Source: Escherichia coli (GTDB lineage: Bacteria > Pseudomonadota > Gammaproteobacteria > Enterobacterales > Enterobacteriaceae). Taken from it: a stretch of 64,000 nt of DNA. Position 1 is the stretch's first letter. Each line of letters opens with the position of its first letter. Below are positions 1 to 49,412 of this stretch, piece after piece. Under the pieces are notes generated by a model. It saw nothing but the letters and a program-made list of their open reading frames with translations, was not told where the DNA came from and made no database searches. The stretch lies in assembly GCF_030013595.1 (NCBI RefSeq), contig NZ_CP122768.1. One strand, given 5' to 3'. The translations under genes and the position numbers were made by a program.

Positions 1-650
1 ATATTGCCGATTACGAGCATCTGGGCGTTTATGCTTGCCGAATTATCGTGCCTGGCATGTCCGATATTTATCCGGCTGAAGATCTGTGGCTGGCGAATAA
101 CAGTATGGGCAGCCATTTACGTGAAACGATTCTTTCGTTACCAGGCAGCGAGTGGGAAAAAGAAGATTACCTGAACCTCATCGAGCAACTGGATGAAGAA
201 GGTTTTGATGACTTTACCCGCGTGCGTGAGCTGTTGGGTCTGGCGACCGGGTCGGATAACGGTTGGTACACCCTGCGTATCGGTGAATTAAAAGCCATGC
301 TGGCGCTGGCTGGTGGCGATCTGGAACAGGCTCTGGTCTGGACCGAATGGACGATGGAGTTTAACTCATCAGTATTTAGTCCGGAACGCGCCAACTATTA
401 TCGCTGCCTGCAAACGTTGTTATTACTGGCGCAGGAAGAAGATCGCCAGCCGCTGCAATATCTGAATGCGTTTGTTCGCATGTACGGCGCAGATGCCGTG
501 GAAGCCGCCAGTGCGGCAATGAGCGGCGAAGCGGCGTTTTATGGCTTGCAACCAGTAGATAGCGATCTGCACGCGTTTGCTGCACATCAGTCGTTGTTGA
601 AGGCCTACGAAAAGCTGCAGCGCGCCAAAGCAGCATTCTGGGCAAAATAA
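1..650 (+). CDS. ycaO: YcaO-family protein, C-terminal part (5' end lies outside window; frame is open from base 3)
   Basis: Open frame continuous from window start to stop at 650; sits directly upstream of focA-pflB as in E. coli; assignment from remembered synteny. Confidence 0.6.
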   Translation, partial: IADYEHLGVYACRIIVPGMSDIYPAEDLWLANNSMGSHLRETILSLPGSEWEKEDYLNLIEQLDEEGFDDFTRVRELLGLATGSDNGWYTLRIGELKAMLALAGGDLEQALVWTEWTMEFNSSVFSPERANYYRCLQTLLLLAQEEDRQPLQYLNAFVRMYGADAVEAASAAMSGEAAFYGLQPVDSDLHAFAAHQSLLKAYEKLQRAKAAFWAK

Positions 651-981
651 AATCAAATAGCCTTCGCAATGTAGGCTTAATGATTCGTCTGAGTTATATT
701 ACGGGGCGTTTTTTTAATGCCCCGCTTTACATATATTTGCATTAATAAAATAATTGTAATTATAAAGTTAAATATCGGTAATTTGTATTTAATAAATACG
801 ATCGATATTGTTACTTTATTCGCCTGGTGCTCCCTTTTAATTAACTGTTTTAGCGGAGGATGCGGAAAAAATTCAACTCATTTGTTAATTTTTAAAATTT
901 ATTTTTATTTGGATAATCAAATAGTTACTCCGTATTTGCATAAAAACCATGCGAGTTACGGGCCTATAAGCCAGGCGAGAT

Positions 982-995
982 ATGATCTATATCAA
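982..995 (+). promoter_or_regulatory. Candidate FNR half-site pair (ATGAT-N4-ATCAA) upstream of focA, followed by a TATAAT-like -10 at 1005..1010
   Basis: Match to TTGAT-N4-ATCAA consensus in the AT-rich focA-pfl promoter region; focA-pfl is known to be FNR-activated. Confidence 0.35.
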
Positions 996-1055
996 TTTCT
1001 CATCTATAATGCTTTGTTAGTATCTCGTCGCCGACTTAATAAAGAGAGAGTTAGT

Positions 1056-1913
1056 GTGAAAGCTGACAACCCTTTTGATCTTTTACTTCCTGCAGCAATG
1101 GCCAAAGTGGCCGAAGAGGCAGGTGTCTATAAAGCAACGAAACATCCGCTTAAGACTTTCTATCTGGCGATTACCGCCGGTGTTTTCATCTCAATCGCAT
1201 TCGTCTTCTATATCACAGCAACCACTGGCACAGGCACAATGCCCTTCGGCATGGCAAAACTGGTTGGCGGCATTTGCTTCTCTCTGGGGCTGATTCTTTG
1301 TGTTGTCTGCGGAGCCGATCTCTTTACTTCCACAGTGTTGATTGTTGTTGCTAAGGCGAGTGGGCGAATCACCTGGGGTCAGTTGGCGAAAAACTGGCTA
1401 AATGTCTATTTTGGCAACCTGGTCGGCGCACTGCTGTTTGTACTTTTAATGTGGCTTTCCGGCGAGTATATGACCGCGAATGGTCAATGGGGACTAAACG
1501 TCCTACAAACCGCCGACCACAAAGTGCACCATACTTTTATTGAGGCCGTCTGTCTTGGTATCCTGGCAAACCTGATGGTATGTCTGGCAGTATGGATGAG
1601 TTATTCTGGCCGCAGCCTGATGGATAAAGCGTTCATTATGGTGCTGCCGGTCGCGATGTTTGTTGCCAGCGGTTTTGAGCACAGTATCGCAAACATGTTT
1701 ATGATCCCGATGGGTATTGTAATCCGCGACTTCGCATCTCCGGAATTCTGGACCGCTGTCGGTTCTGCACCGGAAAATTTTTCTCACCTGACCGTGATGA
1801 ACTTCATCACTGATAACCTGATTCCGGTTACGATCGGTAATATTATCGGCGGTGGTTTGTTGGTTGGGTTGACATACTGGGTCATTTACCTGCGTGAAAA
1901 CGATCACCATTAA
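1056..1913 (+). CDS. focA: Formate channel FocA (GTG start; the 717 ORF is an upstream over-extension)
   Basis: Translation VKADNPFDLLLPAAMAKVAEEAGVYKATKHPLKTFYLAITAG... typical formate/nitrite transporter; precedes pflB. Confidence 0.9.
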   Translation: MKADNPFDLLLPAAMAKVAEEAGVYKATKHPLKTFYLAITAGVFISIAFVFYITATTGTGTMPFGMAKLVGGICFSLGLILCVVCGADLFTSTVLIVVAKASGRITWGQLAKNWLNVYFGNLVGALLFVLLMWLSGEYMTANGQWGLNVLQTADHKVHHTFIEAVCLGILANLMVCLAVWMSYSGRSLMDKAFIMVLPVAMFVASGFEHSIANMFMIPMGIVIRDFASPEFWTAVGSAPENFSHLTVMNFITDNLIPVTIGNIIGGGLLVGLTYWVIYLRENDHH

Positions 1914-1967
1914 TGGTTGTCGAAGTACGCAGTAAATAAAAAATCCACTTAAGAAGGTAGGTGTTAC

Positions 1968-4250
1968 ATGTCCGAGCTTAATGAAAAGTTAGCCACAGCC
2001 TGGGAAGGTTTTACCAAAGGTGACTGGCAGAATGAAGTAAACGTCCGTGACTTCATTCAGAAAAACTACACTCCGTACGAGGGTGACGAGTCCTTCCTGG
2101 CTGGCGCTACTGAAGCGACCACCACCCTGTGGGACAAAGTAATGGAAGGCGTTAAACTGGAAAACCGCACTCACGCGCCAGTTGACTTTGACACCGCTGT
2201 TGCTTCCACCATCACCTCTCACGACGCTGGCTACATCAACAAAGCGTTGGAAAAAGTTGTTGGTCTGCAGACTGAAGCTCCGCTGAAACGTGCTCTTATC
2301 CCGTTCGGTGGTATCAAAATGATCGAAGGTTCCTGCAAAGCGTACAACCGCGAACTGGACCCGATGATCAAAAAAATCTTCACTGAATACCGTAAAACTC
2401 ACAACCAGGGCGTGTTCGACGTTTACACTCCGGACATCCTGCGTTGCCGTAAATCCGGTGTTCTGACCGGTCTGCCAGATGCTTATGGCCGTGGTCGTAT
2501 CATCGGTGACTACCGTCGCGTTGCGCTGTACGGTATCGACTACCTGATGAAAGACAAACTTGCACAGTTCACCTCTCTGCAGGCTGATCTGGAAAACGGC
2601 GTAAACCTGGAACAGACTATCCGTCTGCGCGAAGAAATCGCTGAACAGCACCGCGCTCTGGGTCAGATGAAAGAAATGGCTGCGAAATACGGCTACGACA
2701 TCTCTGGTCCGGCTACCAACGCTCAGGAAGCTATCCAGTGGACTTACTTCGGCTACCTGGCTGCTGTTAAGTCTCAGAACGGTGCTGCAATGTCCTTCGG
2801 TCGTACCTCCACCTTCCTGGATGTGTACATCGAACGTGACCTGAAAGCTGGCAAGATCACCGAACAAGAAGCGCAGGAAATGGTTGACCACCTGGTCATG
2901 AAACTGCGTATGGTTCGCTTCCTGCGTACTCCGGAATACGATGAACTGTTCTCTGGCGACCCGATCTGGGCAACCGAATCTATCGGTGGTATGGGCCTCG
3001 ACGGTCGTACCCTGGTTACCAAAAACAGCTTCCGTTTCCTGAACACCCTGTACACCATGGGTCCGTCTCCGGAACCGAACATGACCATTCTGTGGTCTGA
3101 AAAACTGCCGCTGAACTTCAAGAAATTCGCCGCTAAAGTGTCCATCGACACCTCTTCTCTGCAGTATGAGAACGATGACCTGATGCGTCCGGACTTCAAC
3201 AACGATGACTACGCTATCGCTTGCTGCGTAAGCCCGATGATCGTTGGTAAACAAATGCAGTTCTTCGGTGCGCGTGCAAACCTGGCGAAAACCATGCTGT
3301 ACGCAATCAACGGTGGCGTTGACGAAAAACTGAAAATGCAGGTTGGTCCGAAGTCTGAGCCGATCAAAGGCGATCTCCTGAACTACGATGAAGTGATGGA
3401 GCGCATGGATCACTTCATGGACTGGCTGGCTAAACAGTACATCACTGCACTGAACATCATCCACTACATGCACGACAAGTACAGCTACGAAGCCTCTCTG
3501 ATGGCGCTGCACGACCGTGACGTTATCCGCACCATGGCGTGTGGTATCGCTGGTCTGTCCGTTGCTGCTGACTCCCTGTCTGCAATCAAATATGCGAAAG
3601 TTAAACCGATTCGTGACGAAGACGGTCTGGCTATCGACTTCGAAATCGAAGGCGAATACCCGCAGTTTGGTAACAACGATCCGCGTGTAGATGACCTGGC
3701 TGTTGACCTGGTAGAACGTTTCATGAAGAAAATTCAGAAACTGCACACCTACCGTGACGCTATCCCGACTCAGTCTGTTCTGACCATCACTTCTAACGTT
3801 GTGTATGGTAAGAAAACTGGTAACACCCCAGACGGTCGTCGTGCTGGCGCGCCGTTCGGACCGGGTGCTAACCCGATGCACGGTCGTGACCAGAAAGGTG
3901 CAGTAGCCTCTCTGACTTCCGTTGCTAAACTGCCGTTTGCTTACGCTAAAGATGGTATCTCCTACACCTTCTCTATCGTTCCGAACGCACTGGGTAAAGA
4001 CGACGAAGTTCGTAAGACCAACCTGGCTGGTCTGATGGATGGTTACTTCCACCACGAAGCGTCCATCGAAGGTGGTCAGCACCTGAACGTTAACGTGATG
4101 AACCGTGAAATGCTGCTCGACGCGATGGAAAACCCGGAAAAATATCCGCAGCTGACCATCCGTGTATCTGGCTACGCAGTACGTTTCAACTCGCTGACTA
4201 AAGAACAGCAGCAGGACGTTATTACTCGTACCTTCACTCAATCTATGTAA
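1968..4250 (+). CDS. pflB: Pyruvate formate-lyase (formate C-acetyltransferase)
   Basis: 760 aa, [39 protein letters not shown]..., glycyl-radical C-terminus RVSGYAVRF; strong codon bias. Confidence 0.95.
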
Positions 4251-4290
4251 TTAGATTTGACTGAAATCGTACAGTAAAAAGCGTACAATA

Positions 4291-4319
4291 AAGGCTCCAC
4301 GAAAGTGGGGCCTTTTTTA
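4291..4319 (+). terminator. Rho-independent terminator after pflB
   Basis: GC stem ggctccac/gtggggcc followed by T6 run. Confidence 0.6.
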
Positions 4320-40500: not shown

Positions 40501-43350
40501 TCAGAAAGTCATATTCAGCGTAGCCTGACCGTTATAGCCTTCAGCGCTGCTGCCGCTGACGCTGTGGGCATAACCGGCCTGAACGCCCAGGGTGATATTT
40601 TCCCGGATACGGGCTTCCAGTCCGGCCTGCAGGTCCAGTGACGTGCCATTCCGGGACGGTGAGAACGTCATGTTACTGCCGGCTGCGGCTGTCCCCATGC
40701 TCATGTCACCCCGGGAGCTGAAGGTGCGGATAACAGAAGGCTGTACCCACCAGTTCACCGGCAGTTCACTCACACTGTGTTTTGCACTGTCGCGCAGGGT
40801 GTCACGGGATGAGGTGCCTTCACCAAAGGTCATATCGTTGTGGCTGCCCAGACGGAAACCGGCACGCACATGTTGTGCACTGCCATGCCCGAACTTCACA
40901 TAACCGGCGTTATCCTGGCCGTCATCCAGGGAGAGTCCCTGCCAGGTGTACTGCAGTTGTGGCTCCAGCATCAGATTGTCAGTGATACTGAAGGGCAGAC
41001 CGGTTTCCAGTGAGCCCAGCCAGCCCCAGCCCCGGGCGCGGAAGTCGTTATTGTCCGATGACGCTTTCATGCTGTGACGGGTTCCCTGGGCCACAATGTC
41101 AGCCCACAGGCCGGAGGATGTGTGTACCAGATTCAGGTATCCGCCCAGACTGCCGGCATCATCCCGGACCGTGCCGGCGCGGGAACCGTCATCATCCTTA
41201 ACATCAACGGAAGAATGGCCTGCAGCACCATACACCCCTGTCGTCAGAGACATACCGGCAACCTCTGTTCTGAGCAGGTCACCCTCCAGACGGACGAAGC
41301 CATAGCTGCCGCTGCTTTCCGGCGTGGCTCCACGGGCAATACCGCCGTTGTTATCGTGACCGAGATGACCGCCCTGAATGCTGAGACGGACGCTGTTATT
41401 TTCACCGTTTACACCGGTCTGATGGCTGCGGGAGCCTGCCAGAATCCGGTCATAGTCCATTGCCTGTGTCAACATGGATGTATACAGGGGGACTTCAGCA
41501 CGATAAGCATTTTCACTGCGCAGGTACCAGTCTTCATCGCTGTCACGGTTCAGGGTGTAGTTAAAGGCGCCGGCCTGAAGCGGGCGACTCAGGGCAAACG
41601 CACCTTCTTCTGTGGTGGCGCCATTCTGTGCATCCACAACCCGGATACCCTGTCCGGTGGTTGCCACCCCGAGGTTGCTGTTTCCGACATTTGTAAACGC
41701 AAGCCAGGTTTTGCCGGTTGCCTGACCACCATTAATCACCAGCTGGTCAGAGGCATTGCTGCCATCAAGGCGAACACGCATATTGATGGTGCCGCCCTGG
41801 CCGGTGAGGTTCGTGGTGGTCAGTTTATGGAACGTTACCGGGGAGTTACTTTTTGCAACAGCACGGCTCAGCGCGGCATTCGGTGTCGTCTGATTATCAA
41901 AGCGAATCTCCCCTGCGTTAACAATATCGCCGGTACTGACCACATCACCATTCAGTACCATACTGGCGCCTTTACTGAGCTGTGTTCTGCCACTCAGACT
42001 TCCCCCGGCAGCCAGCGTCAGTGTTCCACGATGTCCGACAGTGGTGTTGCCAGCCTGTCCCCCGGCATTAACCGTAAAGCTGCCGCCATTTTCCAGCAGC
42101 AGGCCGCTGGCCTGACCGGATGTGCCATCAATACTGAACTTACCGCTGGCATTGGTCCCCTCAACAGTGGCACCACTGTCTGCAATCAGGGCACCACCGG
42201 ATGTTATGGTGACACTTGTCGCCTTACCGCCGGCAGACACTGCCAGGGTACCGCCGTCATCCACTAGGGTATTCTGTGCTGAATGGCTCTCCAGTACATC
42301 CAGACGACCGCCGGATTCCAGAACAACACCGTCAGCCTTACCGTTTTCCACCGTGAAATTCCCCAGACGGTTTGTGCCGATGACAGTTGCAGCAGTACTG
42401 GTAACCAGTGCACCGCCCGTGTTCTGGGTGACTGCAGTGGCTTCCCCGCCGGCATGTACCCTCAGTTCACCGTTCTGATTTATGGTGGTGTTACCGGCAG
42501 CGCCACCTGCCTTAACAACCTGCCAGCCCCCCTCGTTAATTACCGTGTTCAGCGCAAGTCCGTCCCTGTGCACATACTGGTAACCGCCATTCAGTGTGGT
42601 ATTCAGGGCCCTTCCGTGTACCGACTGGTCACCACCTGCGTAAATGAGAGTGTCACGGGCTAGCCCGGAAAATAAGATAATCTGCCGTCCATTTTTGTTG
42701 ATGGTGGTGGATTCTGCTGTTCCCTGGACCTTCTGACCCGTATACGAGTTGTCAGAATCAGGGCCGCCTTCTGCGCCGGTGTTGATGATGGTTCCTGTTG
42801 CCAGCCCGCCACTTTTAACGCTCTGGTAACCGTCGCGGTTGATAATTGTACCGGTGGCAACCCCGCCCTCATGCACCCACTGCTCGCCTCTGTTATTCAG
42901 TGTGGTGTTCACCGCCAGTCCGTTCAGGCTCTGTCCCCCGCCGTCACGAATAACCGTATCACTGGCTGTTCCCCCCTCCAGCACGACCTGACGACCATTT
43001 GTGGTGACAGTGGTGTTTCCGGCTATCCCGCCATTCTGTATCCATTGCCCACCGGTGTTTTCTTCACTGTCCGGCCCCAGTTCCAGCCCGGTACTGATGG
43101 TCATTCCGTTGGCCGTACCGAAGACAATCTGGTTGTCATGATTTGTCAGTGTTCCATCGTTCACGGTTTCTCCCGCCTGTACAACCTTGTCAGCAGCCAG
43201 TGCCGGGACTGATGTGACAGCAGCAAGAGACAGCGCAACCGCCACACCGGCGCGTTTTCCCCGTGAGCGGGCCAGTTCGGAAGCCACCACCAGGGTGCCC
43301 GTAATGTGATTCCATACCAGCCTGTAGCTGGTGTTCAGATGTCGTTTCAT
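40501..43350 (-). CDS. flu: Antigen 43-type self-associating autotransporter adhesin (AIDA-I family)
   Basis: Extended signal peptide MKRHLNTSYRLVWNHITGTLVVASELA..., Gly/Thr-rich beta-helical repeats, C-terminal beta-barrel ending ...QATLNMTF. Confidence 0.85.
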   Translation of the reverse strand: MKRHLNTSYRLVWNHITGTLVVASELARSRGKRAGVAVALSLAAVTSVPALAADKVVQAGETVNDGTLTNHDNQIVFGTANGMTISTGLELGPDSEENTGGQWIQNGGIAGNTTVTTNGRQVVLEGGTASDTVIRDGGGQSLNGLAVNTTLNNRGEQWVHEGGVATGTIINRDGYQSVKSGGLATGTIINTGAEGGPDSDNSYTGQKVQGTAESTTINKNGRQIILFSGLARDTLIYAGGDQSVHGRALNTTLNGGYQYVHRDGLALNTVINEGGWQVVKAGGAAGNTTINQNGELRVHAGGEATAVTQNTGGALVTSTAATVIGTNRLGNFTVENGKADGVVLESGGRLDVLESHSAQNTLVDDGGTLAVSAGGKATSVTITSGGALIADSGATVEGTNASGKFSIDGTSGQASGLLLENGGSFTVNAGGQAGNTTVGHRGTLTLAAGGSLSGRTQLSKGASMVLNGDVVSTGDIVNAGEIRFDNQTTPNAALSRAVAKSNSPVTFHKLTTTNLTGQGGTINMRVRLDGSNASDQLVINGGQATGKTWLAFTNVGNSNLGVATTGQGIRVVDAQNGATTEEGAFALSRPLQAGAFNYTLNRDSDEDWYLRSENAYRAEVPLYTSMLTQAMDYDRILAGSRSHQTGVNGENNSVRLSIQGGHLGHDNNGGIARGATPESSGSYGFVRLEGDLLRTEVAGMSLTTGVYGAAGHSSVDVKDDDGSRAGTVRDDAGSLGGYLNLVHTSSGLWADIVAQGTRHSMKASSDNNDFRARGWGWLGSLETGLPFSITDNLMLEPQLQYTWQGLSLDDGQDNAGYVKFGHGSAQHVRAGFRLGSHNDMTFGEGTSSRDTLRDSAKHSVSELPVNWWVQPSVIRTFSSRGDMSMGTAAAGSNMTFSPSRNGTSLDLQAGLEARIRENITLGVQAGYAHSVSGSSAEGYNGQATLNMTF

Positions 43351-43567
43351 CAGCTTTTCCTTACAGAGTGTGAATAAAAAAGCCGGTACCCACAAAAGTG
43401 GATACCGGCAGGTACAAAACAGCATGGTCAGATAAAGTGGTTTTTCCCGGACATAAATGCTTCCCCTCTCTCATCCGCCAGAGAAGTATCAGTCCGTTGT
43501 GTGCAATTCCGTTATGCATGATGAAGAGATTCAGCTGCCTTTTCGCAGACCATTAACCACTATAAAC

Positions 43568-43721: not shown

Positions 43722-44594
43722 TCAGAAGAAAATCCAGTTCCATACAGCGCGGGCAACAGAGACCACCGTGTCACGGACGGCACGCAGAACTGTGCGTGCA
43801 ACAGAGGCAACACAGACGCTCTCCACCGTGTCAAATATCCGGTCCACCGCACCGGTAAACTGTTCACGGGCCTGCCCCCGGACAGATTCCGTGCACAGCT
43901 CGTCCTGCAGGCGGGTCATCAGGGGACTGGCGGCATGGTCGGGAAGCGCTGTCATGAGCGCACTGACCAGCGTATCCAGTTCCCAGCCGGTACGGGCCGA
44001 TACGGCAACAACCGGATGTACGGGCCGGAACAGCCGGAATACCGCATCTGTTTTTTCGCGAATGTTCTGTTCCTGTGCGGGAGAAGGCTGAATACCTGCC
44101 ATATCCCATTCATGGCAGGGCTCTGTTTTGTCGGCCTGCGTCACCACAAACAGCACCTGCTGATGTCCCCGGTGCAGTATGTGTCGCCAGAAATACTCAT
44201 CCACAGACAGGGCACGGTCATCGGCTTTAATCAGCCACAGCACCAGGTCCAGTTCAGGCAGAATGTCACGGTACAGGGCTTCATACTCTGCATCCCTGTC
44301 CCGGCTCTCGCCCACCCCGGGCAGGTCAGTGATAACCATGCTGTGACCATGGCCACTCAGACGGAAGCGCCGCACTTCCCGGGTGCCGGCGTGAACATCA
44401 CTGACCGGGGTGACCTCCCCCTGAAACAGTGCATTACAGAGTGAGGATTTACCGGCCCCGCTTTTACCCATAATGCCAATCACGGGTTCGTGACTGGTGA
44501 GTTTGCGCAGATGTTCCAGGATGTGACGGGAAAGCGAGTAAGGCAGGGAGGAGAGCGGTTTTTCAATTGCCTCAATGGCATCAGACGGATTCAT
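43722..44594 (-). CDS. YeeP/YkfA/YfjP-family GTPase
   Basis: P-loop GIMGKSGAGKSSLCNALF; conserved position upstream of Ag43 gene as in CP4-44. Confidence 0.75.
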   Translation of the reverse strand: MNPSDAIEAIEKPLSSLPYSLSRHILEHLRKLTSHEPVIGIMGKSGAGKSSLCNALFQGEVTPVSDVHAGTREVRRFRLSGHGHSMVITDLPGVGESRDRDAEYEALYRDILPELDLVLWLIKADDRALSVDEYFWRHILHRGHQQVLFVVTQADKTEPCHEWDMAGIQPSPAQEQNIREKTDAVFRLFRPVHPVVAVSARTGWELDTLVSALMTALPDHAASPLMTRLQDELCTESVRGQAREQFTGAVDRIFDTVESVCVASVARTVLRAVRDTVVSVARAVWNWIFF

Positions 44595-44820
44595 ACATGT
44601 ATTCCCGGTGAAAAAAGACAAAACCCCGCGCACCGGAAAGGTGGCGGGGGATTCACAACGATAATATCTGTCTGAAATTATTTAGGATGCAGGTATCTTC
44701 TGATAATCATACATCCCGAATTTTGTTCTTAATAGGTAACCGTCTCATTTAAACCGTCTTTCGCCTCCCTTTCCTGTTTCCGATACTAATGTCCATTTTC
44801 GCAGTAAAGGGACATTTAAG

Positions 44821-45471
44821 ATGAATGCACGAAAAGCGGTACTGGCAGACAATCCGGAATTGATCCTGCGTGTGCTACAGCTGAGATTTGACGAGTCACT
44901 GTCGTACCCGCGCATTTCTGCGCAGACCGGTGTCAGCAAAACCGCCATTTTTTCTCTGGTGAGGCGATTTCACCAGGTATTCACTGACTGGCCTCTTTCC
45001 GGTGAATATTCCTGCGGGCAACTGGCCCGGGCTCTTTTCCCGGGGCGATACCCTTCAGCCCCGACCGTGACTCAGCCTGTGAAAGCAGAGAAACCCCGCC
45101 GGAACCGATTTTCACCGGAGTTTAAATGGAGACTGGTTCAGCAAACTCTTTTACCCGGTGCCTGTGTCGCACAAATAGCTCGAGAGAATGGAATTAACGA
45201 TAACCTGCTCTTTAACTGGCGGCATCTCTGGCGTAACGGTGGCCTGCAACCGCCCGGCGAACATGAAACATCGCTACTTCCCGTGACGTTAACTCCGGAG
45301 CCGGATAATAAAATCCCGGCACCAGTGCAGATACCTGAACAGATAAATACACTGCCAGACAGTCTGTGCTGCGAGCTGGTTCTGCCGGCCGGAACTCTCA
45401 GGCTGAAAGGTGAACTGACACCGGCGTTATTACAGACACTTATCCGCGAAATGAAAGGGAGCAGCCACTGA
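44821..45471 (+). CDS. IS66-family OrfA-like protein with ~90-aa N-terminal extension
   Basis: C-terminal two thirds (...RRNRFSPEFKWRLVQQTLLPGACVAQIARENGINDNLLFNWR...) resembles IS66 OrfA; N-terminal part does not. Confidence 0.55.
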   Translation: MNARKAVLADNPELILRVLQLRFDESLSYPRISAQTGVSKTAIFSLVRRFHQVFTDWPLSGEYSCGQLARALFPGRYPSAPTVTQPVKAEKPRRNRFSPEFKWRLVQQTLLPGACVAQIARENGINDNLLFNWRHLWRNGGLQPPGEHETSLLPVTLTPEPDNKIPAPVQIPEQINTLPDSLCCELVLPAGTLRLKGELTPALLQTLIREMKGSSH

Positions 45472-45818
45472 TGATATCTCTCCCTGCCGGTTCGCGTATC
45501 TGGCTGGTTGCCGGTATCACCGATATGCGAAATGGCTTTAACGGCCTGGCCTCAAAAGTTCAGAACGTCCTGAAGGATGACCCGTTCTCCGGGCATCTGT
45601 TCATCTTCCGCGGACGCCGGGGTGACCAGATAAAAGTGCTGTGGGCTGACAGTGACGGACTGTGCCTCTTCACCAAACGCCTGGAGCGGGGCCGCTTCGT
45701 CTGGCCGGTCACCCGCGATGGAAAGGTTCACCTTACTCCGGCTCAGTTGTCCATGCTTCTCGAAGGCATCGACTGGAAGCACCCGAAACGAACGGAACGC
45801 GCTGGCATCCGCATATAA
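45471..45818 (+). CDS. IS66-family accessory protein TnpB (Orf2)
   Basis: MISLPAGSRIWLVAGITDMRNGFNGLASKVQNVLKDDPFSGHLFIFRGRRGDQIKVLWAD... typical IS66 Orf2. Confidence 0.8.
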   Translation: MISLPAGSRIWLVAGITDMRNGFNGLASKVQNVLKDDPFSGHLFIFRGRRGDQIKVLWADSDGLCLFTKRLERGRFVWPVTRDGKVHLTPAQLSMLLEGIDWKHPKRTERAGIRI

Positions 45819-45837
45819 CCCGTTGTAAAGTGAGGAT

Positions 45838-47409
45838 ATGGACACCTCACTTGCTCATGAGAATGCCCGCCTGCGGGCACTGTTGCAGACGCAACAGGAC
45901 ACCATCCGCCAGATGGCGAAATACAACCGCCTGCTCTCACAGCGGGTGGCGGCTTATGCTTCCGAAATCAACCGGCTGAAGGCGCTGGTTGCGAAACTGC
46001 AGCGCATGCAGTTCGGTAAAAGCTCAGAAAAACTTCGCGCTAAAACCGAACGGCAGATACAGGAAGCCCAGGAGCGAATCAGCGCACTTCAGGAAGAAAT
46101 GGCGGAAACGCTGGATGAGCAATATGACCCGGTACTGCCATCCGCCCTGCGCCAGTCTTCAGCCCGTAAGCCGTTACCGGCCTCACTTCCCCGTGAAACC
46201 CGGGTCATCCGGCCGGAAGAGGAATGCTGCCCGGCCTGTGGTGGTGACCTCAGTCCTCTGGGGTGTGATGTGTCAGAGCAACTGGAGCTTATCAGCAGCG
46301 CCTTTAAGGTTATCGAAACACAACGTCCGAAACTGGCCTGTTGCCGGTGCGACCATATCGTGCAGGCAACAGTACCTTCAAAACCCATTGCACGCAGTTA
46401 TGCCGGAGCGGGGCTTCTGGCCCATGTTGTTACCGGGAAATATGCAGACCATCTGCCGTTATACCGCCAGTCAGAAATATACCGTCGCCAGGGCGTGGAG
46501 CTGAGCCGCGCCACGCTGGGGCGCTGGACAGGTGCCGTTGCTGAACTGCTGGAGCCGCTGTATGACGTCCTGCGCCAGTATGTGCTGATGCCCGGTAAAG
46601 TCCATGCGGATGATATCCCCGTTCCGGTCCAGGAGCCGGGCAGTGGTAAAACAAGAACTGCCCGGCTGTGGGTCTATGTCCGTGATGACCGTAACGCCGG
46701 TTCACAGATGCCCCCGGCGGTCTGGTTCGCGTACAGCCCGGACCGGAAAGGTATCCATCCACAGAATCACCTGGCCGGTTACAGCGGTGTGCTTCAGGCA
46801 GATGCTTACGGTGGTTACCGGGCGTTATACGAATCCGGCAGAATAACGGAAGCCGCGTGTATGGCCCATGCCCGGAGAAAAATCCACGATGTGCATGCAA
46901 GAGTGCCAACCGACATCACCACGGAAGCCCTGCAGCGTATCGGTGAACTGTATGTCATCGAGGCAGAAGTCCGGGGATGTTCAGCAGAACAGCGTCTGGC
47001 AGCAAGAAAAGCCAGAGCGGCTCCACTGATGCAGTCACTGTATGACTGGATACAGGAACAGATGAAAACACTGTCGCGTCACTCGGATACGGCAAAAGCG
47101 TTCGCATACCTGCTGAAACAGTGGGAGGCCCTGAACGTGTACTGCAGTAATGGCTGGGTGGAAATCGACAACAACATCGCAGAGAACGCCTTACGGGGAG
47201 TGGCCGTAGGCCGGAAAAACTGGCTCTTCGCGGGTTCCGACAGCGGTGGCGAACATGCGGCGGTGTTGTACTCGCTGATCGGCACATGCCGTCTGAACAA
47301 TGTGGAACCAGAAAAATGGCTGCGTTACGTCATTGAGCATATCCAGGATTGGCCGGCAAACCGGGTACGCGATCTGTTGCCCTGGAAAGTTGATCTGACC
47401 TCTCAGTAA
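45838..47409 (+). CDS. IS66-family transposase TnpC
   Basis: 523 aa with leucine-zipper N-terminus, CxxC...CxxC zinc-finger-like motif (CPACGG...CCRC) and DDE-like core. Confidence 0.85.
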
Positions 47410-47952
47410 ATATCAATACGGTTCTGGCGAGCCGCTTACAATTATTGCCCCCCCCAAAGGAGATGATTTCATGTATAATTGTGGTGAATCATATTCAGAA
47501 TACGACATATCATTATCTGACGATGAAAACTATGACGATGACTATTATCGTGAACGCCCGTGTCCGGGAGAAGTTTTCGGCTATGATAATACTGAGGATA
47601 ATGATGAGGCGGCATCTGATTATGCATTAAAAATAAATGAAAACTCTGATTAATACGGGGGTAGCTGATAATAAGACAATCAATGACAGATATTAATGAA
47701 TAAACATAATCAGGCGCTCAATACTTGGTTTAATCTGGGCGCCTGATTAAAATCTGAGGAAACATATAATAATTTTCATCAAAATAGTATTTATGTACTA
47801 ACTAAGCTGGATTTGAACCTCTATTTCTGGGTATTTGTTATCACTTAATCCATTACTGCTCCTCCTTCAGCATATGTCGTATCCGTTGAAGGATTTACGC
47901 ATATCGGTAACGTCGGCAACGAGCCAGATGCGGGTACCTGACGGGAGTGAGA

Positions 47953-48378
47953 TCATCGTCCCCTCCCGGTCAGTTCACGGATCAACAGCGTGAGCAGCTC
48001 TGGCGATGGATTTTCCAGCGTCATGTTACCGTGACGGAACTCCACCTTGCAGGAGCCGGCACTGACACTGGTCTGAGTGGAAGTGGATAAAGACGGCGCA
48101 ATGGCCGCCACCGGTTCTTTCTGCTCATCCGGCGTTATTTCTACAGGTAATAATTCAACGCCAGTGTCAGAAGAGGTCGTTACCTGAAGACGCCGTGATA
48201 TACGCCCTTCGTTCTGCCAGAGCCTGAGCCATTTGAACAGGAGGTTATCATTGATATCGTGTTCCCGGGCAATACGGGCAACAGAGGCTCCTGGTTGTGA
48301 TGCCAGTTCCACCATACGAAGTTTGAATTCATTCGAATAGTTTTTACGAGGTTCTTTTCGCCAGTCCTGTAATTCCAT
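47953..48378 (-). CDS. IS66-family OrfA (orphan; no cognate orfB/orfC downstream)
   Basis: MELQDWRKEPRKNYSNEFKLRMVELASQPGASVARIAREHDINDNLLFKWLRLWQNEG... Confidence 0.7.
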   Translation of the reverse strand: MELQDWRKEPRKNYSNEFKLRMVELASQPGASVARIAREHDINDNLLFKWLRLWQNEGRISRRLQVTTSSDTGVELLPVEITPDEQKEPVAAIAPSLSTSTQTSVSAGSCKVEFRHGNMTLENPSPELLTLLIRELTGRGR

Positions 48379-48431
48379 ACTTAGATGTCCGTCTATATCA
48401 GATGGGCGTCTAAGTTACCAATTTTCGTCTG

Positions 48432-48680
48432 ATGGCTACATACGGCGGTCAGTTTACGCTTACTGACAACGCGATGGCGGAGAGCATCAATGGTCTTTAC
48501 AAAGCGGAGGTAATACACCGTAAGAGCTGGAAAAACCGTGCAGAAGTGGAACTGGCCACACTCACGTGGGTGGACTGGTATAACAATCGACGATTGCTGG
48601 AAAGGCTGGGCCATACTCCTCCGGCAGAAGCAGAAAAAGCTTATTATGCTTCCATCGGAAACGATGATCTGGCAGCCTGA
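48432..48680 (+). pseudogene. C-terminal fragment of an IS3-family transposase (OrfB integrase core tail)
   Basis: ...AESINGLYKAEVIHRKSWKNRAEVELATLTWVDWYNNRRLLERLGHTPPAEAE... Confidence 0.5.
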
Positions 48681-49062
48681 GTTCACAGATAAAACACTCT
48701 CCAGGAAACCCGGGGCGGTTCAAACCTGATTCTGGAAAAGGACTTTGTGGATTGTTGCTATTGCCAGTGAGATTGAATGAAGTCGTTTTAACTCGCTTTG
48801 AATACGTCTTGCCCCCAGATTTCGCTGAGAACGTAACTCCAGAATCAGAGCGACTTCGCAAGTGCCGGTTTTCGTTGATGGTGAACGCTTGGGGCGACGG
48901 CTGTGGCTTTCCAGACCAGCGATGCCCTGAGCCAGATATCTGCGCCACCATTTTACGCAATGTGGGCCGAGAAATGCCACAGCGACGGCATACAAATCCC
49001 GCATCACCGGACGTTTCATAGAGTTTTACCCACTGTAGCCGCTGCTGAATTTCCCTGTTCAT
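48562..49062 (-). pseudogene. Frameshifted N-terminal fragment of a transposase (HTH region)
   Basis: MNREIQQRLQWVKLYETSGDAGFVCRRCGISRPTLRKW-like N-terminus, overlapping alternative-frame ORF 48720..49019; family not assigned with confidence. Confidence 0.4.
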
Positions 49063-49412
49063 AATTTGGCATTAGTTCAGCTCAATCCCGACTTAAAAAG
49101 TCCCTACAGGATGTTCCGGACCTGAGGCACAGTTCATATCCTTATCCATAAAAAATTTAGCTATGTCTATAGCATTAATCTTGACAAGACGACGTTAGGG
49201 CCTGGCGATGAATCATTTCCCCTGCCAGATATCCTTTGGGGTGCACCAGAACTACCGTTTTATATCTATATAACTGAAACGTCCCTCGCCATCCTTCATA
49301 TTTTGATGTAGTAACACCATTCACTTTCATCTACCCCCCGTTTTATTAACATATAGTAAAAATCACCTCGCCGCATTTTATTCTTTTGAAGTAAAATCAT
49401 TTACCAGTTCAC

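Follow-up and report, generated by a model that had tools for sequence, protein, structure and literature searches.

An IS679/IS683-type element, most likely intact, among older insertion sequence fragments in a mosaic pathogenicity island of Escherichia coli

An Escherichia coli chromosome stretch of 64,000 nucleotides (assembly GCF_030013595.1, contig NZ_CP122768.1), analysed as a whole and here called the window, contains between positions 44,595 and 49,412 an insertion sequence (IS) of the IS66 family, followed by several pieces of other transposable elements. The question raised by this locus is whether the IS66-family element is a defective relic. A preliminary description, made from the letters of the sequence, had let the element start at 44745, had seen no recognisable left terminal repeat and had considered its first open reading frame (ORF) to be chimeric. 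Our analysis leads to a different answer: the region 44736-47439 is most likely a known IS66-family element of the IS679/IS683 type, present here as an intact and probably still active copy that would be the youngest arrival in an intergenic stretch of a mosaic island. We assign this reading a probability of about 0.93.

The element and its flanks

The complete element comprises 2,704 bp (44736..47439, plus strand). Its left terminus opens with GTAACCGTCTC... at 44736, 9 nt further out than previously assumed. The left terminal inverted repeat (IRL; 44736..44760, plus strand) reads GTAACCGTCTCATTTAAACCGTCTT, while the right terminal inverted repeat (IRR; 47415..47439, plus strand), delimited by junction alignment and terminus comparison, ends with ...GAGCCGCTTAC. 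If the left terminus is compared with GTAAGCGGCTCGCCAGAACCGTATT, the reverse complement of the right end, 17/25 positions are identical (binomial P about 7e-6). The left end starts with GTAACCG and the right end with GTAAGCG, and both thus show the inverted repeats of about 20-30 bp opening with GTAA by which IS66 elements are recognised.

Further evidence for these boundaries comes from plasmids. The element with 200 bp of flanking DNA per side served as query against 72,556 plasmids, and 356 plasmid records contained most of this query. Among the matches listed, copies with 99.9-100% identity extended from query position 201 (196-200 in a few cases) to 2904 (2905-2917 in a few cases). Query positions 201 and 2904 correspond to window positions 44736 and 47439, and dozens of plasmid copies were bounded there. 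The plasmid backbones of the near-identical copies varied and included IncI2, IncF, IncHI2, IncI-gamma and small MOBP plasmids. Six plasmid copies were retrieved and both of their junctions aligned with those of the window copy: at either end of the element, the outermost 20 bases were constant across all seven copies, homology ended exactly there, and the DNA outside the IRL was different in each of the seven. Perfect 8-bp target duplications were present in all six plasmid copies (GAAAAAAG, CCTGTTAC, ACATCACC, GTATGGTT, TGTTGTGT and GAATCAGG). Because of the shared plasmid boundaries, the six duplications and the 17/25 terminal match, we consider the element to be a discrete mobile unit.

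In the IS66 family, the DDE transposase TnpC acts on both inverted repeats and inserts the element by an 8-bp staggered cut, while TnpA, a DNA-binding protein with two helix-turn-helix (HTH) domains, and TnpB are needed as accessory proteins. All three genes are found between the ends described above, on the plus strand and in the order tnpA-tnpB-tnpC. The first, tnpA (44821..45471), encodes a long-form protein of 216 amino acids (aa) that is recognised by NF038385 and Pfam HTH_Tnp_1 and corresponds to RefSeq WP_000993956.1. It is followed by tnpB (45471..45818; 115 aa; Pfam TnpB_IS66, E = 2.8e-40) and by tnpC (45838..47409), which encodes the DDE transposase of 523 aa (Pfam DDE_Tnp_IS66, PF03050, E = 4e-104). 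Read directly from the sequence, the TGA of tnpA and the ATG of tnpB share one base (TGATG, 45469-45473), so that tnpB lies in the -1 frame. The gap between tnpB and tnpC amounts to 19 nt, and a GAGGA motif lies ahead of the tnpC start. Gene order, tnpA/tnpB overlap and the spacing of about 20 nt before tnpC are consequently those of IS66 elements. TnpC reaches 474.8 bits against NF033517 (cutoff 180), carries the IS66-type catalytic domain and also has zf-IS66, LZ_Tnp_IS66 and IS66_C domains (Pfam). Thus the earlier assignment to the IS66 family is confirmed, with an intact gene set at 44821-47409 according to Pfam and NCBIfam. The proteins equal RefSeq WP_000993956.1, WP_000624618.1 and WP_000381443.1, which are encoded in the duplication-flanked copies as well. 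A promoter scan of 44600-49200 gave four promoter-like sites against 4.4 expected, which is chance level, and terminator-like sites were somewhat commoner than expected in the same interval (9 against 4.8 +/- 2.4).

IS679 from E. coli pB171 is reported to have a length of 2,704 bp, imperfect terminal repeats of 25 bp and a duplication of 8 bp, and to require all three of its ORFs. Its tnpA stop and tnpB start reportedly overlap, with tnpB in the -1 frame and tnpC about 20 bp downstream. By the convention of ISfinder, elements sharing roughly 95% or more identity are regarded as the same element. Across 2,704 bp, the copy on plasmid pHNSHP45 (KP347127) is 99.9% identical to the window element, and it is this near-identity by which the latter is assigned to IS679/IS683 as a specific element. 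In the mcr-1 literature, the pHNSHP45 copy is named IS683 and placed in the IS66 family (PMC5125707, PMC5996929). RefSeq labels the transposase of an element with identical TnpA and 98%-identical TnpC as 'IS679 family'; at the protein level, TnpC of the window is 98% identical both to RefSeq 'IS679 family' (514/523) and to 'ISCro1 family' transposases. The element is already known and named, and it is neither defective nor chimeric.

Around the window copy itself, no target duplication is seen: the 8 bp bordering its left end (CTTAATAG) differ from those bordering its right end (AATTATTG). In E. coli AUSMDU00014361, which is free of the IS at this site, 156 bp lie between CTTAATAG and AATTATTG (positions 4137-4292 of the retrieved locus, L004). 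In the window these 156 bp are missing and replaced by the IS, which makes the border between island DNA and IRL (44735..44736, no strand) a rearrangement junction.

Several points weigh against our reading. Activity of the window copy is inferred from its sequence identity to duplication-flanked copies. Without an 8-bp target duplication, the insertion event of the window copy itself cannot be reconstructed, and none of 5,426 complete E. coli genomes showed the IS flanked on each side by AATTATTG with the 156 bp kept. Two further points concern the DNA to the right of the element, described below: a search in which the backbone 47440-47881 was joined directly to 49064 onward did not reveal any locus that lacks the older fragments, and the upstream end of the IS481-family fragment is indefinable, as its homology to an intact gene ends 1 nt before the ATG.

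The absent duplication is consistent with a later rearrangement, for which two routes can be envisioned. Either two direct IS679/IS683 copies 156 bp apart recombined, with loss of one copy and of the spacer, or the element inserted once and, during or after this insertion, neighbouring DNA was deleted from the IRL outward. That copies of IS679/IS683 do undergo homologous recombination is demonstrated in the porcine strain JP538. At 1.00 Mb of this genome, the GTPase|IRL junction known from the window is present, with truncated wzzB and ugd to its right. At 4.78 Mb, on the opposite strand, we found the junction between IRR and the 60-aa ORF that follows the element in the window, with the remaining part of wzzB and the his operon in front of it. 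The flanks in JP538 are hybrid, namely CTTAATAG[IS]GAATATCA and GAATATCA[IS]AATTATTG. Such flanks are a hallmark of homologous recombination, here of the island copy with an inverted copy that had inserted in wzzB (duplication GAATATCA), which caused a large chromosomal inversion. The gene of the O-antigen chain-length regulator, wzzB, is split. Recombination between IS66 copies has likewise been shown in Agrobacterium, where it leaves hybrid 8-bp flanks (PMC6778807). The conserved right junction IS|AATTATTG in JP538, next to a variable left flank, also fits the recombination of two neighbouring copies in the window. However, this route requires two independent insertions within 156 bp, and the search of the 5,426 genomes, which covered the AATTATTG-site intermediate only, revealed no intermediate. 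Loss of a second copy by recombination thus appears possible, yet rather doubtful to us.

The long form of TnpA

How, then, is the unusual first ORF of the IS679/IS683-type element to be understood? The preliminary description had noticed an N-terminal extension of about 90 aa and had judged it to be unlike IS66. Indeed, with 216 aa TnpA exceeds the short TnpA of 141 aa encoded nearby by about 75 aa, and the two proteins align from residue 90 onward only. However, the additional part is not foreign. Residues 12-198 cover positions 2-190 of the curated NCBIfam equivalog NF038385, a profile of 190 positions for the 'IS66-like element accessory protein TnpA', with 283.6 bits (cutoff 150), and the first 95 residues alone still match positions 2-87 with E = 1.3e-28. 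Thus the protein fits the full-length profile above its cutoff with the N-terminal domain included, as expected for a long-form IS66 TnpA. The short TnpA in contrast covers only positions 80-188 of NF038385 and fits the short-form model NF047595 instead.

A word-indexed protein search with the TnpA N-terminus returned almost solely E. coli fragments. In an exhaustive HMMER search of the N-terminal 95 residues against 1.84 billion representative proteins, distant long-form TnpAs of 209-217 aa were detected, which are only about 36% identical in the N-terminal domain and likewise pass NF038385. Since such distant long forms exist, the long form of TnpA is old and widespread, and the 216-aa protein is the normal long form of the IS679/IS683 subgroup.

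Two HTH domains can be distinguished in the long form, one at the N-terminus (about residues 6-72) and one that matches HTH_Tnp_1 (residues 93-150); the domain at the C-terminus is small. An AlphaFold model, calculated from a shallow alignment of five sequences, reached predicted local distance difference test (pLDDT) values of 81-90 over residues 11-60 and of 82-87 over residues 101-140. The model predicts helices at residues 12-23, 29-36, 40-53 and 65-72 of the N-terminal domain. The second HTH, also helical, spans 99-138 in the model, and a disordered linker separates it from a C-terminal part with a small beta-hairpin and a helix. Sub-threshold Pfam matches to an HTH of the sigma-70 region-4 type were obtained for residues 17-49.

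If the element were crippled, it would have lost its left repeat and its OrfA would have been fused at this locus to about 90 unrelated residues. Such a view could refer to the left end GTAACCG in place of the commoner IS66 start GTAAGCG and to the 17 of 25 terminal positions that pair, as well as to the excess of about 75 aa over the adjacent short TnpA and the lack of a target duplication around the window copy. Yet an identical left end and the same 216-aa TnpA occur in all six independent copies with perfect 8-bp duplications, a curated full-length model spans the N-terminus, and distant long-form TnpAs exist. We consequently regard a crippled element as very improbable. Neither the missing left end nor the chimeric OrfA withstood comparison, as the left repeat is intact and OrfA is of standard length for its subgroup. 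Probably the usual IS66 start GTAAGCG had been sought in the preliminary description and GTAACCG was overlooked.

Older fragments and the order of events

Other transposon remnants had been reported to lie immediately to the right of the element. This is not the case, since 442 bp of island backbone, which is not IS DNA, intervene (47440..47881, plus strand). In locus L004 of AUSMDU00014361, this backbone directly adjoins the upstream region of the GTPase gene, and no IS separates the two. It harbors a conserved, very acidic ORF of 60 aa (WP_000282125.1; 47471..47653, plus strand) whose product starts with MYNCGESYSEYDISLSDDENYDDDYY... and which is kept, upstream of the GTPase-cah module, in all examined strains that have the backbone 47440-47881. 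The 60-aa product matched no family in Pfam, NCBIfam or PHROGs, and a neighbouring protein of 202 aa matched no PHROGs family. On the 3' side of the 60-aa ORF, a perfect 10-bp inverted repeat (AATCAGGCGC ... GCGCCTGATT) is located at 47710-47750, a candidate that may act as transcription terminator or as protein-binding hairpin.

Beyond the backbone, the fragments named in the preliminary description were all present: the orphan IS66 tnpA (47953-48378, minus strand), the tail of an IS3-family OrfB (48432-48680) and the frameshifted N-terminus of a transposase (48723-49063, minus strand). What had been called a graveyard of IS fragments could be resolved into pieces of an ISEc23-like, an IS1203/IS629-like and an IS481-family element.

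Of the ISEc23-like IS66 element, only the left end is kept in the first piece (47882..48463, minus strand); its identity to an annotated ISEc23 amounts to about 94%, and homology ends at 47882. Besides the IRL, GTAAGCGTAAACTGACC..., and the intact tnpA of 141 aa, the piece has 75 nt from the start of tnpB (47882-47956), which is annotated as partial by the Prokaryotic Genome Annotation Pipeline (PGAP); the remainder is deleted. At 48170-48220, within this tnpA, a patch of about 50 nt is far more diverged than its surroundings of about 98% identity, a pattern suggestive of a short tract exchanged by recombination between related IS66 elements. At the other end (47850-47882, minus strand), MAFFT aligned about 20 further bases (TACGACATATGCTGAAGGA vs TACAACATGTGCTGAATGA) past a 13-nt gap. 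These may represent residual tnpB homology or chance, and the junction of the ISEc23-like piece may thus be uncertain by about 30 nt.

Next to it lie the last 259 bp of an IS3-family element of the IS1203/IS629 type (48464..48722, plus strand), consisting of the OrfB C-terminus and the right end. This piece, used as query (positions 1-259), matches the ends of annotated IS3-/IS1203-family transposase genes with 96-100% identity, and the tail ORF was recognised by Pfam rve_3 and by positions 311-369 of NCBIfam transpos_IS3. In the last piece (48723..49063, minus strand), a transposase gene of the IS481 family is preserved up to codon 113 and carries a +1 frameshift. Against the 5' end of an intact 323-aa gene from EM03-18-08, 339/341 nt are identical with one 1-nt gap, and the frameshift is caused by one extra A in the run at 48951-48954.

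We also considered a composite transposon of 3.7 kb, which would be bounded by the IS679/IS683 IRL (44736) on one side and by the IRL of the inverted ISEc23-like piece (48463) on the other, with the 60-aa ORF as cargo. Its outermost ends would be IS66-type termini in inverted orientation (GTAACCG... and ...CGCTTAC) and many records seemed to match query positions 137-3864 as one place; however, these apparent joint matches turned out, when the loci L002 and L003 were inspected, to be separate ISEc23 and IS679 elements in other order and context that had been merged by the search, the 8 bp outside the two ends are unequal (CTTAATAG vs TGACAACG), the 3.7-kb block occurs at this one locus only, and the ISEc23-like remnant is found together with the 60-aa ORF without the IS679/IS683 copy, so that both ends arrived separately. 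With unequal flanks, a single locus and asynchronous parts, the composite transposon was rejected as hardly credible.

In what order did the IS679/IS683 copy and the older pieces arrive? The right end of the IS1203-like piece cuts the IS481-family gene, the IRL of the ISEc23-like piece cuts the orfB of the IS1203-like element, and the ISEc23-like element itself is broken within tnpB and joined to the backbone. This nested geometry points to successive insertions, followed by at least one deletion. In strain RM8385 (O103), a longer IS1203-like remnant of 1 kb adjoins the same IS481 fragment without the ISEc23 piece, with aerobactin genes and shiF on the left. AUSMDU00014361 possesses the ISEc23-like and IS1203-like remnants and the 60-aa ORF without the IS679/IS683 copy; here, an ISCro1 element sits in the tail of the IS1203-like remnant, beside the aerobactin genes iutA and iucD. 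The junction between the IS1203-like and the IS481-family remnants is common to 461 genomes, while the left junction between GTPase gene and IS679/IS683 was detected in only 13 of the 5,426 complete genomes, mostly porcine. Given the strain comparison and these junction counts, we conclude that the IS679/IS683 copy arrived last.

We thus propose the following scenario. An IS481-family element would already have been present in an intergenic stretch of a pathogenicity island linked to the serW tRNA gene. An IS1203/IS629-like element may then have inserted into it, and an ISEc23-like element into the latter. One or more later deletions would have trimmed this older stack. The IS679/IS683 copy would be the most recent insertion in the stretch. 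Its left end would have been rearranged, either after or coupled to insertion, with the target duplication absent and 156 bp lost. The copy also serves as a portable patch of homology for large chromosomal rearrangements.

The island, linked to the serW tRNA gene, adjoins tRNA-Ser, infA, aat and cydDC. Porcine enterotoxigenic E. coli (ETEC) such as ETEC1747 (NZ_CP122722) have chromosomes that agree with the window at 100% identity from 44600 to 49200. A gene for a dynamin-family protein, a Cah/Ag43 autotransporter gene (40501-43425, minus strand) and the gene of a YeeP-like GTPase (43722-44594, minus strand) precede the IS region. It is followed by genes for a hypothetical protein of 202/214 aa, a PerC-family regulator, an IbrB-like protein, an IbrA-like 3'-phosphoadenosine-5'-phosphosulfate (PAPS) reductase and an AAA protein. 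Over about 24600-64000 of the window, the island encodes a CbtA/YeeU toxin-antitoxin system, antirestriction, patatin-like phospholipase, RdcB-family and dynamin-family proteins, Cah, PerC, IbrB/IbrA-like and AAA proteins, and Iha. It presumably resembles the SpLE1 or OI-43/48 island of enterohaemorrhagic E. coli (EHEC) O157.

In AUSMDU00014361 and RM8385, the same IS fragments adjoin aerobactin genes, which replace or add to the modules of the window. Since variable cargo is found beside the same IS debris, and since JP538 underwent an inversion at the IS679/IS683 copy, the remark that the locus is a recombination hot spot is supported, and the lack of a duplication together with the replaced 156 bp agrees with it. 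Such behaviour is routine and known island biology. Beyond annotation, the importance of the locus is limited: a false alarm is corrected and four IS-derived pieces obtain exact boundaries. The window copy is also a working recombination substrate, as illustrated by the 156-bp deletion and the chromosomal inversion in JP538. The IS debris marks seams between the Cah/GTPase, aerobactin and PerC/IbrAB modules, which is useful if serW-linked islands of porcine ETEC and EHEC are to be compared.

Comparison with known elements

Among known systems, the three older pieces resemble their counterparts as remnants. The ISEc23-like piece shares with ISEc23 a left end of about 94% identity including the IRL and the 141-aa tnpA, while it differs by being cut 75 nt into tnpB and by the markedly more diverged patch of about 50 nt in tnpA. 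From the IS1203/IS629 group of the IS3 family, the terminal 259 bp are kept at 96-100% identity. Of an unnamed IS481-family element, the first 340 nt are kept at 99% identity to an intact transposase gene of this family, and this remnant is also frameshifted.

IS679/IS683 in contrast is matched over the entire element. Both share the length of 2,704 bp and the imperfect 25-bp repeats, and the 8-bp duplication reported for IS679 is seen in the sister copies of our element. They also share the tnpA/tnpB/tnpC layout, the overlap of the tnpA stop with the tnpB start and the spacer of about 20 nt before tnpC. No structural difference was found; the window copy differs in lacking a target duplication and in being located at a 156-bp deletion.

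A more distant likeness concerns the N-terminal HTH of IstA, the transposase of IS21 elements. Several distant homologues of TnpA residues 1-95 (44821-45100), all of them partial proteins, match both NF038385 and the N-terminus of the NCBIfam IS21 transposase model NF033546. The motif L.L.F...LS...IA...G.SK..V...V.R....G..WPL......L...LFP is common to the long TnpA and to these IS21-matching proteins. However, the similarity spans only about 70 residues, and the matching proteins, being fragments or partial, score below the IS21 cutoff. A Foldseek comparison of the TnpA model with the PDB gave nothing significant (best E = 0.24) and returned generic HTH proteins including IstA and TnsB; at the level of predicted structure, this outcome would neither support nor refute the link to IS21. 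The shared motif suggests a distant relationship between the N-terminal HTH domain of the long-form TnpA and the N-termini of IS21-type transposases.

A further comparison is that with ISCro1 of Citrobacter rodentium and E. coli. The copy in AUSMDU00014361 is complete, with 2,699 bp (L004 5470-8168) and the target duplication GGCCATAC. From about position 650 to 2704 of the IS, which takes in the 3' part of tnpA together with tnpB and tnpC, nucleotide identity to IS679/IS683 is 95-98%, TnpC is 98% identical, and the IRLs are nearly identical. TnpA of ISCro1, with 225 aa, is also a long form that fits NF038385. However, positions of about 25-445, which comprise the leader and the first roughly 110 tnpA codons, are only 53-55% identical and thus essentially unrelated as DNA, before identity climbs over positions 446-645. 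The N-terminal HTH domain of TnpA, encoded in this segment, is therefore strongly diverged: over their full length the two TnpA proteins share 59% identity, and the differences cluster within the first 110 or so residues. In the window, the divergent block corresponds to 44760-45180, against ISCro1 at L004 5494-5883. As low identity is confined to the left end, the history of this module must differ from that of the rest of the element, and IS679/IS683 and ISCro1 can be described, on their aligned sequences, as mosaics that differ in their left-end module.

One might speculate, although we consider it unlikely at present, that the leader and the TnpA N-terminal HTH constitute an exchangeable unit, distantly shared with IS21-type N-termini. 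If true, a domain for DNA-binding specificity or for regulation would be exchanged among lineages of IS66 elements and even across IS families, and left-end exchange could be relevant to the question of what TnpA does. The distinct left-end history belongs to the IS679/IS683 lineage as a whole when compared with ISCro1, and not to the window copy.

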